Under the pieces are notes generated by a model. That model saw nothing but the letters and a program-made list of their open reading frames with translations. It was not told the origin of the DNA and did not search any database. A program made the translations under genes and the position numbers. Below, piece after piece: positions 45,065 through 54,164 of a DNA stretch of 64,000 bases. The stretch covers positions 32,779,842 to 32,843,841 of the forward strand of contig CM102164.1 of assembly GCA_046562895.1 (NCBI GenBank). The letters are read 5' to 3'. Source of the DNA: Trichechus inunguis. Taxonomy: Eukaryota. Every line of letters starts with the position of its first letter. Position 1 is the stretch's first letter.

Positions 45065-46114
45065 CTAGGTCCTGCCTAAGGGCTTAAGCTGTTTCTCCTC
45101 AGATCGAAGAACTCCCTTTAATAATTCTTGTAAGTTTGGTTTGACTTTTGCATATTCCTTTAGTTCCTGTTTATCTGGAAATGACCTAATTTCACCATCA
45201 AATTTGAACGAGAGTTTTGCAGGATATATTATTCTTGGCTGACAATTTTTTTCTTTCAAGATTTTATATATGTCATCCCACTGCCTTCTTGCCTGCATGG
45301 TTTCTGCTGAATAATCTGAGCTTAGTCTTATTGTTTCTCCTCTGTATGTGACTTCTTGTTTTTCATGAGCTGCTTTCAGGATTCTTTGTTTGTCTTTAGT
45401 TTTGGCGAGTGTGAATATGATATGTCTTGGTGATTTTCTTTTGGGGTCTCTTCTATATGGGGTTCGTTGAGCTTCTTGGATGGCCGGCTTTTCATCTTTC
45501 ATGATATCGGGGAAGTTTTCTGTCAGCAGTTCCTCAATGATCCTCTCTGTGTTTTCTGTTTTCTCCCCTTGTTCTGGGATGCCAATCACTCGTATATTTT
45601 TGCTTTTAATTGTGTCCCACATAACTCTCAGGGTCTCTTCATTTTTCTTTGTTCTTTTTTCTGAGTTTTCCTGAAACAGAGTTGTATCCAAGTGTTTGTC
45701 TTCAGTTCCACTGATCCTGTCTTCCACGGTTTCAAATCTACTTCTCAGACCTTCTATGACATCATCCATTTCTGAAATCTTGTTGTTTATCTTTTGGATT
45801 TCTAATTGTTGTTTTTGTATAATTTCTAGTTGTGAATTTATTTTGGCATTTTGTTCCTGCATCATCTTCCTGAATTCTTCCATTTTTTTGTCTGTATTTT
45901 CCATAAATTTGTCTATTTTTTCCTCATGTTTGTCAGCTTTTTGCCTCAGTTCTTGGAAAATTCCAAGTATTAGTGATTTGAGTTCCCTATCAGGTACTTC
46001 TAGTGCATTTTCTTCCACAGGAGAATTATCTGGTGTTTTAATTTGGACGCCTATTGGAGCCATCCTGTCTTGTTTTTGTAAATGTTTTGATATTGTTTGC
46101 TGTTTTCGGGGCAT
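45065..46114 (-). CDS. L1 ORF1p, intact 349 aa (coiled-coil, RRM-like and C-terminal domain)
   Basis: Track ORF MPRKQQTISKHLQKQDRMAPIGVQIKTPDNSP...EIQKINNKISEMDDVIEGLRSRFETVEDRISGTEDK...NIRVIGIPEQGEKTE...PRHIIFTLAKTKDKQRILKAAHEKQEVTYRGETIRLSSDYSAETMQARRQWDDIYKILKEKNCQPRIIYPAKLSFKFDGEIRSFPDKQELKEYA... with no interruption. Confidence 0.85.
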   Translation of the reverse strand: MPRKQQTISKHLQKQDRMAPIGVQIKTPDNSPVEENALEVPDRELKSLILGIFQELRQKADKHEEKIDKFMENTDKKMEEFRKMMQEQNAKINSQLEIIQKQQLEIQKINNKISEMDDVIEGLRSRFETVEDRISGTEDKHLDTTLFQENSEKRTKKNEETLRVMWDTIKSKNIRVIGIPEQGEKTENTERIIEELLTENFPDIMKDEKPAIQEAQRTPYRRDPKRKSPRHIIFTLAKTKDKQRILKAAHEKQEVTYRGETIRLSSDYSAETMQARRQWDDIYKILKEKNCQPRIIYPAKLSFKFDGEIRSFPDKQELKEYAKVKPNLQELLKGVLRSEEKQLKPLGRT

Positions 46115-46879
46115 TCAGTAGGTATTTCTCTCCTTTATTGATTGTAGATTTTTTTGTTTCGTCCCTTTTTAAAAAAAAAAAAATTGAGTATGTCTGAGCA
46201 GGCAGACTGCGTGCCCCTTGTTCGCTCATCTGTGGACTTAATACTTTTCGCCTCCTTCTCCAACTGACCGGTTCAGTCACTCACATGTGGTACAGCTGGG
46301 CAGGTCTAGCTGAAGAGGAGCCACTGGGACGGGTTGTTTGTGGCATTCACCGCAGCCACCAGGACATTCGGTAGTCAGTGCTGGGCAGGTTCCAATAGGC
46401 CGTGCCTGCACAGCTTGGTGGTGTGATGTCAAGTGCACGGTGCAGGTAGGCAGGATGCAGTGGGGAGATGGTTATGTGTGAAGCTAAGCTGGATATGGGA
46501 GAGAGGAGAGAGGAGCAGGAGCGAAAAAACATACAAACATAAAAGAATGCTAGGGGAGCTTGTCATTGGAATGGACAGATGAGAGACTATGGAATGGAGA
46601 AAAACAGAAGGGGGAAGAGAAAGAAAAGAATGAACAAATAAAAATCAGAAAAGTTAACTGCAAAGTTCCCAGGGATCCCGCTGATGCAGCTATGAGGTCT
46701 GGGGAAGTCGGTCTCAGGTTTCACAGCACAGCCTGGCCAGAAGGCGCAGAGGCATACAACGCCTGGTATTCAGGGATCAGAAAGAGAAGCAAGAGATAGA
46801 GAAACAAGAAATTGAGCAATGAAGAAAGGCAAAAGGGAAAAAAGGGGAAAAGAAAACTAATCAAAAAAAAAATAAAAAA

Positions 46880-48250
46880 AGCAACACCAGCAGTCAACGA
46901 ATGGCACTCAGAGAGCCAGCCAGTGTGGGCTGGTGTTTCTGGACAAGAGATTGTGTCCGTGGGAAACAGAGGAGGCCGAGTGTGAAGAAGGGTGGAGAGT
47001 GGGAAAGCGTATATCACAAATTGCCTGCGCTCTGGGGACCCTCAGGAAGGAGCAAAGAGGGTGCACGGAGCCAGGAACCTGAGTGAAAGGAGGGGGAGGC
47101 GGTGAGAGGCAAGCGAGAAACCAAAAGAAGCAGGAGAAAAAAAAAAAAGCAGCACCAGCAGCCAACAAACGGCACCCAGAGAGCCGCCCGCCCGGGCGCG
47201 CGGAATCCAAGCAGCCGGCGGCCCCCGGTGAAGAGGCTGCGGCCGCGAGGAGTAGAGGAGCAAACGAACGAAGGCCCCGGGATCTCACCAGCGCGGCAGC
47301 CCAGACCTGGAAGCAGCCGCACGCCCGAACGTAGCCCCACAGCCCCGCAGGAAAGGGCAAAGACGGCGCTCGGAACCAGGCACATGAGCAAAAGGAGGGG
47401 GAGGCAGCGAGAGGCAAGCGAGAAACCAAAAGAGGCAGAAAAAGTAACACCAGCAGCCAACAAATGGCACCCAGAGAGCCGGCCGCATGGGAGCGTGGAA
47501 TCCAAGCAGCCGGCGGCCTCGGGTCAAGAAATTGCGGCCGTGGGGAGCAGAGGAGCAAACGAACAAAGGCCCCAGGATCTCACCAGCACAGCAGCCCAGA
47601 CCTGGAAGCAGCCGCACTCCCAAACGTAGCCCCACAGCCCCGCAGGAAAGGGCAAAGACGGTGCTCGGAGTCAGGCACCCGAGCAAAGGGAGGGGGAGGC
47701 AGCGAGAGGCAAGCGAGAAACCAAAAGAAACAGAAAAAGAAAAGAAAAAAAAAAATAAAAGCAACACCAGCAGCCAACAAACGGCACCCAGAGAGCCGCC
47801 CGCCCGGGCACGCAGAATCCAAGCAGCCGGCGGCCCCCGGTCAAGAAACCGTGGCCGCAGGAAGCAGAGGAGCAAACAAACAAAAGCCCTGGGATCTCAC
47901 TGGCGCAGCAGCCCAGACCTGGAAGCAGCCGCATGGCCGAATGTAGCCCCACAGCCCGGCAGGAAAGGGCAAAGACGGTGCTCGGAGCCAGGCACCCGAG
48001 CAAAAGGAGGGGGAGGCAGCGAAAGGCAAATGAGAAACCAAAAGAAGCAGAAAAAGCAACACCAGCAGCTGACAAACGGCACCCAGAGAGCCGCCCACCC
48101 GGGCTCGTGGTATCCAAGCAACCGGCGCCCCCCAGCCAAGAGACCTTGGCCACGGGAAGCAGGGGAGACCCAGCCGGGACGAAGAGGGGTGGGGGGTGGG
48201 AAAGCGCACACCGCAAATTACCGGCTGTTTTGTCTCCCACTGGATGCTCC
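46880..48250. repeat. Tandem array of ~4-5 CpG-rich ~295-317-bp monomers forming the L1 5'UTR (a putative monomeric L1 promoter)
   Basis: The motif acaccagcagccaacaaa(c/t)ggcacccagagagccgcccgcccgggc...aaggagggggaggcagcgagaggcaagcgagaaaccaaaaga recurs at ~46882, 47152, 47447, 47764 and 48059. Copies are ~90 % identical and differ mostly by CpG to TpG/CpA changes. Confidence 0.8.
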
Positions 48251-48524
48251 GCGAGGCTGCTCTCCTGTACTCCCGTTTGCTGGTCTTCGATAGGAGTCCA
48301 AGATGGTATCCGCGCTGCGTTAGCTGGTAGGGGACCTCTGCATGAATCTCTCCTTGCTCTCCGTTCTCTTTCAGTATTCTCACTCCGTTTGGTGTTCGGC
48401 TGAGTTCTTTATCTCTTCATTTGATGTTCTAGGGTTTCAGGATTGTTGATTCTCTGGCTTAGTTTTTCGGATCTTTGCTGTGGCCGGACGGCATGGTGCT
48501 TCTGCCTAGAGCGCCATCTTGCCG

Positions 48525-51500
48525 GACCCTCTCTATATTTTTGCTATTGTGAACAATGTTGCAATGAACATGGGTGTGCATATGTCTATTCATGTGACGG
48601 CTCTTATTTCTCTAGGATACATTCCTAGGAGTGGGATTGCTGGATCATATGGTATTTTTATTTCTAGCTTTCTAAGGAAGTGCTATATCGTTTTCCAAAA
48701 TGGTTTTACCATTTTACATTCCCACCAGCGGTGCATAAGAGTTCCGATCTCCCCTCAGCCTCTCCAAGATTTGTTATTTTCTGTTTTTTTAATTTTAATT
48801 TTTATTTTTTTATTCGTGCCTGTAATGGCAGGGTGAAATGGTATCTCATTGTGGTTTTGATGTGCATTTCCCTCATGGCTAGTGATCGCGAGCATTTCCT
48901 CATGTTTCTGTTAGCTGCTTGAATGTCTTCTTTGATGACGTGTCTGTTCATTTCCTTTGCCCATTTTTTAATTAGATTATTTGTCTTTTTGTGGTAGAGG
49001 TGTTGGATTTTCCCGTAGATTTTAGAGATTAGACCTTTGTTGGATTTGTAGTAGCCAAAATTTTTTTCCCAGTTTGTAGGTTCTCTTTTTACTCTTTTGA
49101 TGAGAATAAGTCTGTAATTTTTAGAAGATCCCAGTTATCTGGCTTCTCTTCTGGAGTTTATATGTTGTTATGGTTTGTATCCTGTTAATGCCATATATTA
49201 GGATCTCTAGTGTTGATCCTATTTTTTCTTCTATGAGCTTTATAGTTTTTGGTTTTAGACTTAGGTCTTAGATCCATTTTGAGTTAGTTTTTATGTATGG
49301 TGTGAGGTATGGGTCCTGTTCCATTTTTTGCAGATGGACATACAGTTTGGCCAACACCATTTGTTAAAAAGACTGTCTGTTCCCCATTTAATGGACTTTG
49401 GGCCCTTGTTGAAGATCAGGTTACCGTAGGTGGATGGATTTACTTCTGGGTTCTCGATTCTGTTCCATTGGTCAATGTATCTGTTGTTGTACAAGTATCA
49501 GACTGTTTTGACTACTGTAGCTGTAAAGTAGGTTCTGAGGTCAGGTAGTGTGAGTCCTCCTACTTTATTCTTCCTCTTCAATAATGCTTTACTTATCTGG
49601 GGCCTCTTCCCTTTCCATATAAAGTTAATGATTATTTTTTCCATCTCTTTGAAGAATGTTGTTGGTATTTGGATCGGGATTGCATTGTATTTGTAGATTG
49701 CTTTGGGTAGAATTGTTATTTTCACAATGTTGTGTCTGCCTATCCATGAGCATGATATGTTTTTCCATTTATGTAGATCTCTTTTGGTTTCTTGCAGTAG
49801 TGTTTTGTAGTTTTCTTTGTATAGTTCTTTTACATCCCTGGTTAGATTTATTTCTAAGTATTTTATTTTTTTAGGGGGTATTATAAATGGTACTGCTTTC
49901 CTGATTTCATTTTCGTCGTTCTCTTTGTTGGTGTATAGGAATCCAACAGATTTTTGTGTGTTCATCTTGTATCCTGCTACTCTGCTGAATCTTTCTATTA
50001 GTTCTAGTAGTTTTCTCATAGAGTCTTTTGGGTTTTCCATATATAGTATCTTATCATCTGCAAATAGGTACAGTTTTACTTCTTTATTACCAATTTGGTT
50101 GCTCTTTATTTTTCTTGCCTTATTGCACAACATTAGATTGGAGTGGTGATAAATGACATCCTTGTCTCGTTCTTGTCCTCAAGGGGAATGTTTTCAGCTT
50201 CTCTCCATTTAGAATGATGTTGGCTGTTGGCTTTTCATAGCTGCCCTTTATTATGTTGAGGAATTTCCCTTCTATACCTATTTTATTGAGTGTCTTTATC
50301 AGGAATGGGTGTTGGACTTTGTCAAATGCCTCTTCTGCATTGATTGAAATGATCATGTGATTCTTTTCTTTCCTTTTATTTATGTGGTGGATTACATTGA
50401 TTAATTTTCTAATGTTGAACCATTCTTGCATACCTGGTATGAATCCTACCTGGTCGTGTTGTATTATTTTTTTGTTATGATGCTGAATTGTATTGGCTAG
50501 AATTTTGTTGAGAATTTTTGCATCTATATTCATGAGAGATGTTGGTCTGTAATTTTCTTTTCTTGTGGTATCTTTGCCTGGTTTTTGGTATCTGGGTTAT
50601 GTTGCCTTCATAGCATGAATTTGAAAGTATCCCTTCCTTTTCTATGTTCTGAAATAATTTGAGTAGAAATAATGTTTGGTAGAATTCTTAAGTGAGGCCA
50701 TCTGGGCCAGAGCTTTTTTTTTTGTTGGGAGTTTTTTTTTTTTTATTACCTTTTCAATCTCTTGTTATGGGTCTGTTCAGATTTTCAACAACAATTTGTG
50801 ATAGTTTGGGTAGGTAGTATGTTTCTAGTAATTTTGTCCATTTCCTCTAGATTTTCAAATTTGTTGAAGCATAGTTTTTCGTAATACTCTGTTATGATCC
50901 TTTTTATTTCAGTTGGATCTGTTGTAATGTCCTCCATTTTATTTATTTGGGTTATATGTGTCCTCTTCTGTTTTTCTTTTGTCAGTTTGGCTAGTGGTTT
51001 GGCAATTTTGTTGATCCAGAAACAACTTTTGGTTTTGTTGATTCTTTCTATTGTTTTTCTATTCTCTATTTCATTTATTTCTGCTCTGATCTTTATTATT
51101 CGCTTTCTTCTGGAGGCTATAGGCTTCTTTTGCTGTTCTCTTTCTATTTGTTCTAGTTGTGTAGCTAATGTTTTGATTCTGTCCCTTTATTCTTTTTTGG
51201 TGTGTCCATCTATTGCTATAAATTGACCTCTGATCACTGCCTTTGCTGTGTCCCAAAGGTTTTGGTGTGATGTGTTTTCGTTCTCATTTGATTCTAGGAA
51301 TTTTTTTATTCCATCTTTGATTTCTTCTATTACCCAGTGGTTCTTCAGCAGGGTGTTATTTAGTTTCCATGTAATTAATTTTTTTTCCTTCCTCTTCCTG
51401 TTGTTAATTTCTACCATGATGGCATTGTGATCAGAGAAGATAGTTTGTATTATCTCAATGTTTTGGATTTTGTTGAGGGTTGCTTTGTGGCCTAAGATGT

Positions 51501-53990
51501 GGTCTATTCTGGAGAACATTCCATGTGCGTTGGAAAAGAATGTGTACCTTGCAGCTATTGGGTGAACTGTTCTATATATGTCTGTGAGATCAAGTTGGTT
51601 GATTGTGTCCTTTAGATCTTCTGTATATTTGTTGAGTTTCTTTCTAGACATTCTGTCCTTTACCGACAGTGGTGTGTTGAAGTCTCCTACGATTATAGTG
51701 GACCTGTCATGTTCTCTTTTCAGTGCTGTTTAAGTTTGTTTTATGTGTTTTGGAGCCCTGTCATTGGGTGTGTAGATGTTTATTATGGTTATGTCTTCAT
51801 GCTGGATCTTCCCTTTAATCATGATGTAGTGCCCTTTTCTGTCTTTTATGGTGAATTTTGTTTTAAAATCTATTTTATCTAAGATTAATATTGCCACTTC
51901 TGCTCTTTTTTGGTAGCTGTTTGCTTGATATATTTTTTCCATCCTTTAATTTTTAATAAATTTGTCTTTGTTTCTGAGATGTGTCTCTTATAGACAGCAT
52001 ATTGATGGATCCTGTTTTTTTAATCCATTCTGTCACTCTCCATCTCTTTATGGGTACATTGAGGCCGTTTACATTCAATGTAATTATTGATAGGTGTGAG
52101 TTTATTGCTGTCATTCTGTAGTGCTTTTTTTTGTGGTGCTGATGTTTTCATTGTTCCTCTCCTGTGCTGAATTCCTTTTGTGGATTTTTTTTCATTTCTT
52201 TTGTTTTTGATAGATTTTGTTTTTACTGAGACTTTATGTTTTTCTTCTTTATATTGATGAGTAGGTTTATTAACTTTCTTTGTGGTTACCTTGAAATTTA
52301 CCCTTATCTTCCAAAATTTAAACCAGTCTATTATTACTTGGTATTGCCTTGTGTTCCTCTCCATTAGAAAGTTCTATACCTACACTGTTTATTTCCTCTT
52401 TTATTGTTCTGACATTGTTGTCATTTGCAGATTAACCTCTCTGATTCCCTGTTGTAAATCTTTTGGTTTTGAATAGTCCTCGAGAGGCATTTCCTAGGTT
52501 GGTATCTGGCTGGTGCGATCTTGTGTCCTAGATTCAGGTTGTCGTCTGATGTTGTTTTTCTCAATCAGAAGGGCTCCTTTTAATAATTCTTGTAAGTTTT
52601 GTTTGGTTTTTACATATTTCTTTAATTTCTGTTTATCTGGAAATGTCCTAATTTCTCCATCATATTTGACCGAGAGTTTTGCAGAATGTATTATTCCTGG
52701 TTGGCAATTTTTTCTTTCAAGGTTTTATATATGTCATACCATTGCCTTCTGGCCCGCATGGTTTCTGCTGAATAATCAGAGCTTAGTCTTATTGTTTCTC
52801 CTGTGTATGTGACTTTTCATTTTTCTCGAGCTTCCCCCAGTATTCTTTGTTTGTCTTTGATTTTAGCAAGTGTGATTATGATATGCCTTGGTGATTTTCT
52901 TTTGGGGGTCTATCATGTATGGGGTTCATTGAGCTTCTTGGATGGTCAGCTTTTCATCTTTCATGATATTGGGTAAGTTTTCTGTCAGCAGTTCTTCAAT
53001 GATCTCTGTGTTTTCTGTTTTCCCTCCCCTGTTCTGGAACTCCAATCACTGTTAAATTTTTGCTTTTGATTGTATCCCACATAATTCTCTGGGTTTCTTC
53101 ATTTTTCTTTGTTCTTTTTTCTTATTTTTCCTCAAAGTTGTAGCCAACTGTTTGTCTTCAATTTCGCTAATCCTGTCTTCCATTGTTTCAAACTTATTCC
53201 TCAGTCCTTCTGTGACACTGTCCATTTCTGAAATCTTGTTGTTTATCTTTTGGATTTCTAATTGTTGTTTTTGTATGATTTCTAGTTGTGAATTTATTTT
53301 GGCTTTTTGTTCCTGTATTATTTTCCTGAATTCTTCCATTTTTTGTCTATTTTCCATGAATTTCTCTATTTTTTCCACATTTTTGTCTGCTTTTTGCTTC
53401 AAGTCTTGGATAGTTGTGAATATTAGAGATTTGAATTTCCTATCAGGTAGTTCTAGTGCCTTTTCTTCTACTGGAGCGTCATCTGGTGTTTTATTTTGGA
53501 TACCTACTGGAACCATCATGTCCTGTTTTTTTTTTTTTAATATGTTTTAATATTGTCTGCTGTCTTCAGGACATTCAGTAGTTATTTTCTTCATTTATTC
53601 ATTATAAATTAGTTTATTTCAACCTGCTTTTTTGTTTTATTTGGTTATGTCTGAGCAAGTGGCCTGTGCATTCTTTGCTTGTCTGTGGGTGCAATAGTTT
53701 TCACCTCCTTGTCCAATGGTAGGGCCAGTTGCTTAGCGATGGTGTAGCAGGGCATGTCCAGCTGAAGGGAGGGGCTGGGATGGATTTTTTGGCAGGTACT
53801 TGGGCTGACAAGATGAGCCAGTGGTCAGCACAGGGCAGGTTCCAGTACGTCGTTCCTTTGCTGCTCAGGAGTACAGTGTTCAGCACACAGTACAGATAGG
53901 CAGGATGTAGGCACAGGGGGAGCTTGTGATGTGTGACGCTAGGTTGGGTATGGAAAAGAAGAGAGAGAGGAGAGAGAAATAGGAGCAAAA
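48525..53990 (-). mobile_element. 5' part of L1 copy 2 (ORF2, ORF1, short non-monomeric 5'UTR), degenerate
   Basis: Minus ORF fragments of ORF2 (49498-50133, 50120-50533, 51187-51651, 51730-51942) and ORF1 (53052-53519 ...EIIQKQQLEIQKINNKISEMDSVTEGLRNKFETMEDRISEIEDK...). The 5'UTR resembles the unique part of the young L1's 5'UTR. Confidence 0.75.
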
Positions 53991-54164
53991 AGAAAGTTGA
54001 ACAGTGCTATAAATATGTGTACATGTACATTTTGAGTACCTGTTTTCAATTCTTTTGGGTTAGCACTTTTATTCTTTCTTAGAATTTCCATCTCTGGTTA
54101 CATTACCCATCTTAGATGTTGCCCACTTTTTCCATTAGAGCCCTTAGCATATTTATTAATCATG

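Follow-up and report, generated by a model that had tools for sequence, protein, structure and literature searches.

A tandem-monomer array lies behind a YY1 leader in the 5'UTR of a young sirenian-type L1 from Trichechus inunguis

The 5' untranslated regions (5'UTRs) of L1 (LINE-1) retrotransposons turn over fast, and the origin of monomeric L1 promoters is known almost solely from mouse and rat. The L1 elements of these two rodents have monomers as their 5' end and lack a terminal YY1 box, while a start made of a G-run and a YY1 box is common to nearly all other mammalian L1 (PMC5381506). In mouse L1 activity climbs with the number of monomers (PMC9022269). Tandemly duplicated 5'UTR motifs were described in two copies in hyrax and in three copies each in elephant, horse, and opossum (Boissinot and Sookdeo 2016, PMC5381506), and such duplications were restated as "monomeric structures" (PMC9022269). 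The phenomenon is already described, Afrotheria included. A literature search found no description of a tandem L1 5'UTR from sirenians. An array of this kind is present in a 64,000-nucleotide stretch of Trichechus inunguis DNA (GCA_046562895.1, contig CM102164.1, positions 32,779,842 to 32,843,841 of the forward strand). This stretch is called the window and positions below refer to it. The repeat block is a genuine, inherited portion of the 5'UTR in a young L1 of sirenian (afrotherian) type.

The array was detected by Tandem Repeats Finder (TRF) at 47039-48167 with a period of 295, 3.7 copies, 82% matches, and a score of 1443. A second TRF row gave a period of 317 at 47440-48056. An ungapped repeat search gave start-to-start spacings of 268, 295, 317, and 295 for the family. 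Three full core monomers were delimited by unit alignment, namely M2 (47150-47443, 294 bp), M3 (47444-47760, 317 bp), and M4 (47761-48055, 295 bp). The extra length of M3 is a longer T-rich end in the sense orientation. The pairwise identity of M2-M4 is 88-90% and their non-CpG divergence is 6-9%. Two older variant units, U1 (46880-47149) and U5 (48056-48244), flank the core monomers; each has a monomer head and a middle segment which is shared by the two and differs from the core monomers. U1 lies nearest ORF1, while U5 is the 5'-most unit and abuts a unique leader. An internal tandem duplication of two to three copies, as known from other L1, is found here as three core monomers with two variant units. 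The original prediction of 4-5 monomers of approximately 295-317 bp with a periodicity near 300 bp was therefore borne out, with the qualification that two of the units are variants. No other copy of the array was found within the window.

The L1 which houses the array is a full-length element on the minus strand (approximately 39570-48531), and all of its parts named here are on that strand. A target-site duplication (TSD) of 11 nt, TCTATATTTTT, is present at both ends. The left copy (39564-39574) overlaps the start of the T-run and matches the right copy (48532-48542). The domains of ORF1 and ORF2 (ORF, open reading frame) identify a LINE-1, and the poly(A) tail and TSDs enclose the entire element including the array. 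The 5'UTR is 2,417 nt in length (46115-48531), with the L1 5' end at 48531 and the array on the ORF1 side. The sense order from 5' to 3' is leader, U5, M4, M3, M2, U1, a pyrimidine-rich spacer, a tether, and ORF1. As predicted, the array lies within the L1 5'UTR. Because it lies between the leader and ORF1 of a TSD-bounded element, it is part of a single retrotransposed unit. It is contiguous with ORF1 on the minus strand, unlike an unrelated satellite.

The unique leader comprises 287 nt (48245-48531). Its sense start is GAGGGTCCGGCAAGATGGCGCTCTAGGCAGAAGC and its CpG observed/expected ratio (o/e) is 0.79. The sense 5' sequence, GAGGGTCCGGCAAGATGGCGCTCTAGG, opens with a G-run. An exact match to the canonical YY1 box CAAGATGGC is present at 48513-48521 on the minus strand, corresponding to sense nucleotides 11-19. 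The leader has homologs in a Loxodonta L1, in the window L1 at approximately 17150, and in three dugong L1 copies. The YY1 box is present in all of these, and the elephant and dugong copies also begin with the G-run. A YY1-like sequence, CAAGATGGT, was also seen on the plus strand at 48299-48307, antisense within the leader and pointing outward from the L1 5' end. This second site was given no weight as one-mismatch matches occurred 18 times in the window compared to 15.6 expected.

On the ORF1 side of the array 765 nt of spacer and tether separate U1 from ORF1. The spacer (46530-46879) is pyrimidine-rich, with 45% T, 27% C, and 14% A on the sense strand. The tether (46115-46529) is the non-repetitive, ORF1-proximal part of the 5'UTR. 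Identity to the dugong copies is 87-89% for the spacer and 92-94% for the tether. The head-to-tail monomers are thus followed by a non-monomeric tether.

The arrangement shares features with three described types of 5'UTR. The non-murine tandem 5'UTRs of elephant and hyrax are also afrotherian, start with a G-run and YY1 box, form a CpG island, contain two to three internal copies, and belong to elements with a long intergenic region. The duplicated motifs described from them are approximately 70-100 bp compared to units of 266-317 bp here, 5'UTR length is below 2,029 bp in elephant and hyrax compared to 2,417 nt in the window L1, and the sample was one without sirenians (PMC5381506). Mouse L1 A, Tf, and Gf and rat L1Rn resemble the window L1 in having CpG-rich head-to-tail monomers and a tether before ORF1. 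They are also alike in turnover of monomer types and in an older type beside the tether, and probably in a copy number that differs among copies or subfamilies. The rodent elements begin within the array and have no YY1 leader, whereas a unique leader is present here. Mouse monomers are approximately 200 bp, are more numerous, and have demonstrated promoter activity, while the elements described here have one to three core monomers with a putative promoter role. The human L1PA-type 5'UTR is alike in its terminal YY1 box within the first ~20 nt, its CpG-rich internal promoter, and its presumed start at nucleotide 1. It is approximately 900 nt in length and has no tandem repeats, whereas 1.4 kb of monomers plus the spacer lie between leader and tether in the window L1.

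The translated plus-strand ORF of the array matched two "uncharacterized proteins" of Dugong dugon. The two dugong loci (L006 and L007, GCA_030035585.1) contained three L1 insertions. DugA (L006) and DugA2 (L007) are 95.6-95.8% identical to the window L1 over approximately 5 kb of ORF1-ORF2 and both of their ORFs are intact. Their 5'UTR of approximately 1,970 nt comprises leader, U5, three monomers of 266-281 bp, spacer, and tether, with no U1. TRF gave a period of 266, 3.1 copies, and 93% matches for both arrays. DugB (L006) is 94.6% identical over the same ~5 kb region and contains stops and a frameshift, marking it as older. Its 5'UTR of approximately 1,710 nt comprises leader, U5, one core monomer, U1, spacer, and tether. 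All three copies open with a G-run and CAAGATGGCGCTCTAGGCAGAA, the same leader start as in the window L1, and their U5 units are 81-85% identical to that of the window. As homologous arrays occupy the same position in three dugong insertions with different flanks, the array is a feature of the L1 family whose copy number changes; it is carried by retrotransposition and is neither a local duplication nor a satellite. The divergence of M2-M4 points the same way. It would be far beyond what a near-intact element could have gained since insertion.

The age and affinity given to the element in the original prediction were also upheld. The L1 is young, with an intact ORF1 and an ORF2 that has just two premature stops (TAG at 42341 and TAA at 41591) and no frameshift. 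The best named matches in the ORF1 protein search were from Elephas, Loxodonta, and Trichechus, and the ORFs are 94.6-95.8% identical to dugong L1, in agreement with an afrotherian element. The ORF2 protein search gave matches mostly from horse, dog, and rabbit. An exact look-up of the window ORF1 protein returned no record. DugA and DugA2 (L006 2441-11246 and L007 2441-11245), which both have intact ORF1 and ORF2, are 99.2% identical to each other, have different flanks, and have their own TSDs. The near identity of these intact copies suggests that L1 was active in dugong until very recently or still is.

Core monomer number differed among the elements, with one in DugB and three in the related subfamilies, including both DugA and DugA2. 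In the monomer identity matrix the window monomers are 88-89% identical among themselves, 81-87% identical to the DugB monomer, M2 being the closest (87%), and 72-78% identical to the DugA monomers. Within DugA the monomers Ma and Mb are 96-97% identical. Core monomer number and length thus shifted during L1 evolution, the number from one to three. Monomers are closer within a lineage than between lineages, which indicates independent amplification or concerted evolution. A tentative extension is that the family has an intermediate "leader plus monomers" architecture in which the core tripled independently in two sublineages, the 266-bp dugong type and the 295-317-bp type of the window lineage. 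This is possible but less likely than not to hold as a whole. If true, it would imply recurrent selection for multi-monomer promoters beyond rodents and would provide a natural system for the origin of monomeric L1 promoters.

The array has a GC content of 0.61 and contains 83 CpG in 1,365 bp. Its CpG o/e is 0.66 compared to 0.25 for the whole window. In 200-bp windows from approximately 47000 to 48599 the o/e ranged from 0.51 to 0.98 and the GC content from 0.45 to 0.68. A CpG island in the sense of Gardiner-Garden and Frommer is said to be longer than 200 bp with a GC content above 50% and an o/e above 0.6. The length, GC content, and o/e of the array all exceed these values, confirming its predicted CpG-rich, island-like character. 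The o/e per unit was 0.86 for M2 (28 CpG), 0.65 for M3, 0.63 for M4, 0.59 for U5, and 0.46 for the CpG-poor U1 (8 CpG). A is also extremely scarce on the sense strand of the array, at 3.4-6% in the core monomers compared to 44-45% in the ORFs. The dugong arrays retain both the CpG-island composition and the A-poor bias (2.6-7% A). ADAR-type A-to-G editing was rejected as a cause of the A depletion as non-CpG sense A/G differences made up only 6 of 49 variable columns.

The CpG states of the units were compared over 40 alignment columns having CG in at least one unit. M2 had 28 CG and 4 TG/CA, M3 had 17 and 13, M4 had 18 and 14, and U1 had 7 and 14, respectively. CpG-transition differences predominate across the whole array. 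It had been predicted that the unit nearest ORF1 stands out by CpG decay. U1 does carry many TG/CA states, but its states did not differ significantly from those of M3 and M4 together (Fisher p = 0.08). The unit that stands apart is M2, whose CpGs are well preserved (p ~0.01 against M3 or M4). The implication that the decay took place at this locus was contradicted. U1 and its DugB counterpart are 92.6% identical and have TG/CA states in common at sites which are CG in U5, so the depletion predates the insertion and did not arise here. By this comparison U1 is taken as a distinct, older unit type whose CpG depletion would have been inherited from the L1 master lineage. The mutational cause of the CpG loss is likely to be deamination of methylated CpG, which rests on established knowledge.

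Taken together, the array is probably the internal tandem-monomer region of a 2,417-nt 5'UTR in which the leader is the start and the monomers are predicted promoter or enhancer modules. Transcription would start at leader nucleotide 1, with YY1 setting the position as it does in human L1. Downstream of this start the CpG-island monomers may serve as internal promoter or enhancer modules, and by analogy with mouse a promoter with more of them would be expected to be stronger. U1 would be an old unit whose CpGs were lost in the master lineage. Three points weigh against this reading. No transcription-factor motif was conserved per monomer in the window and dugong arrays; GGGCGG boxes were present only in M2, M4, and U5 and were sparse in the dugong arrays. 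The A-poverty of the sense strand could reflect a role at the RNA level instead of in transcription. The comparison covers four elements (the window L1, DugA, DugA2, and DugB), which is a small sample.

The tandem structure might instead be a neutral by-product of slippage, unequal exchange, or template switching by reverse transcriptase, with no effect on transcription. The missing per-monomer motif conservation suits this explanation, as does the variation of unit length by lineage (266 compared to 295-317 bp). Folding of the RNA did not exceed that expected from composition (z = +1.1 and +0.4), and tandem duplications are scattered over mammalian L1 5'UTRs (PMC5381506). A neutral origin is nevertheless unlikely, given that there is one core monomer in the older copy but three in each of the two younger lineages, among them the dugong copies that are intact and nearly identical. 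In addition, the core monomers kept the CpG-island composition, whereas U1 and the spacer did not. A structured RNA was rejected as a candidate based on the same fold z-scores and the lack of an Rfam family.

The original prediction had labeled the array a mouse-like promoter. In a true mouse-type promoter initiation signals would be present in each monomer and the array itself would serve as the main promoter, buffering the element against 5' truncation. The tandem CpG-rich monomers, the non-monomeric tether, the older unit beside the tether, and the copy number differences among subfamilies are all consistent with this, as is the effect of monomer number on activity in mouse (PMC9022269). 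However, the array is internal. In the window L1 and the three dugong copies it lies behind the unique YY1 leader (287 nt in the window), so that 4/4 full-length elements begin at this leader and none begins inside a monomer. The extended YY1 box was found in no monomer of the array, and only mouse and rat L1 are without the terminal YY1 start (PMC5381506). The label was not sustained and a mouse-type promoter is improbable here.

The plus strand of the array could also be proposed to encode an antisense, ORF0-like protein. Long ATG-initiated ORFs are present on this strand, including one of 268 amino acids at 47487-48293, and stop counts were slightly lower than in shuffled sequence (p = 0.013). 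The two dugong matches mentioned above are further points in favor. On the other hand, the longest open frame was no longer than composition would predict (p = 0.11) and no Pfam domain was found. Monomer lengths are not multiples of three and the frame drifts across units. The dugong matches are partial, spanning 24-28% of the ORF with 59% identity. The A-poor sense strand leaves the plus strand almost without T, which alone removes stop codons and accounts for the long open frames. A protein-coding role on the antisense strand is very improbable. The dugong gene models PS065_000695 (L006 10001-12483) and PS065_019237 (L007 10001-10789) lie on the antisense strand of the monomer arrays and are probably spurious models arising from the stop-poor composition.

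Local duplication after insertion, or an unrelated satellite or foreign insertion within the L1, is effectively refuted: the single copy of the array in the window and its composition, sharply unlike the remaining L1, would suit it, but the homologous dugong arrays, the position between leader and ORF1 of one TSD-bounded element, the monomer divergence far above insertion age, and the lack of an Rfam match stand against it.

Arrays were not found in the other window L1 elements or in the elephant L1 copies. By TRF the 5' region of the other full-length window L1 (15700-18500) was free of tandem repeats, in line with the predicted non-repetitive 5'UTR of that element. The Loxodonta L1, a third, older window L1, and an Elephas L1 likewise had no tandem repeats upstream of ORF1. 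The ORFs of two elephant L1 loci (L001, which is the Loxodonta L1, and L002) had 76-79% nucleotide identity to those of the window L1; the leader was weakly shared and the array was absent. It had also been proposed that two promoter types coexist in the window. This was not supported, as both L1 elements share the same leader and only their internal 5'UTRs differ.

ORF1 (45065-46114) is intact, encodes 349 amino acids, and contains PF02994 (L1 RRM) and PF17490 (C-terminal domain). The ORF1-ORF2 intergenic region (44643-45064) is long at 422 nt, and a long intergenic region between the ORFs is a feature of afrotherian L1 (PMC5381506). ORF2 (40758-44642) encodes the endonuclease and reverse transcriptase (PF03372 and PF00078) in a single frame of 1295 codons. 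It aligned to rabbit ORF2p as one high-scoring segment pair in one frame. The C-terminal part of ORF2 contains a perfect 66-bp tandem duplication (41084-41217, 2.0 copies, 100% match) which is in-frame and doubles 22 amino acids. The 3'UTR (39580-40757) is approximately 1.18 kb and contains an imperfect direct duplication (39593-39689 and 39818-39916) with a spacing of approximately 226 bp and 75-93% identity. The poly(A) tail (39570-39579) appears as a T-run on the plus strand, with an AATAAA-type signal just within the element.

An older L1 with the same orientation surrounds the young one, and the sequences on the two sides of the insertion (39300-39569 and 48543-49860) form one ORF2 3' region. 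The older host L1 has an ORF1 at approximately 52524-53528 and a tether-like segment at 53575-53991 which is 66% identical to 46115-46527 of the young element.

Exact-pattern monomer scans of bacterial-genome and metagenome contig collections gave no match, and an ORF1-based scan of metagenome contigs gave just a fragment of 36% identity. A contig of 1,149 bp (JAMXMA010000123.1) from an assembly labeled Pseudomonas sp. MOB-449 (GCA_024054415.1) is 88.6% identical to the tether and the start of ORF1. Over the 3'-most 477 nt of the 5'UTR (46115-46591) the identity is 81%, and the value of 88.6% includes the adjoining ORF1. This contig is apparently a contaminant of the bacterial assembly, derived from afrotherian host or sample DNA.

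The array is an expected transposable-element feature and not a host regulatory element. For annotation, such arrays mimic CpG islands and yield long spurious ORFs, and two dugong gene models sit on them. In the sirenian L1 family the ancestral YY1 leader is retained and the CpG-island monomers are expanded, and intact near-identical copies exist in dugong. The gain, loss, and homogenization of monomers may therefore be traced here in a second, independent lineage.

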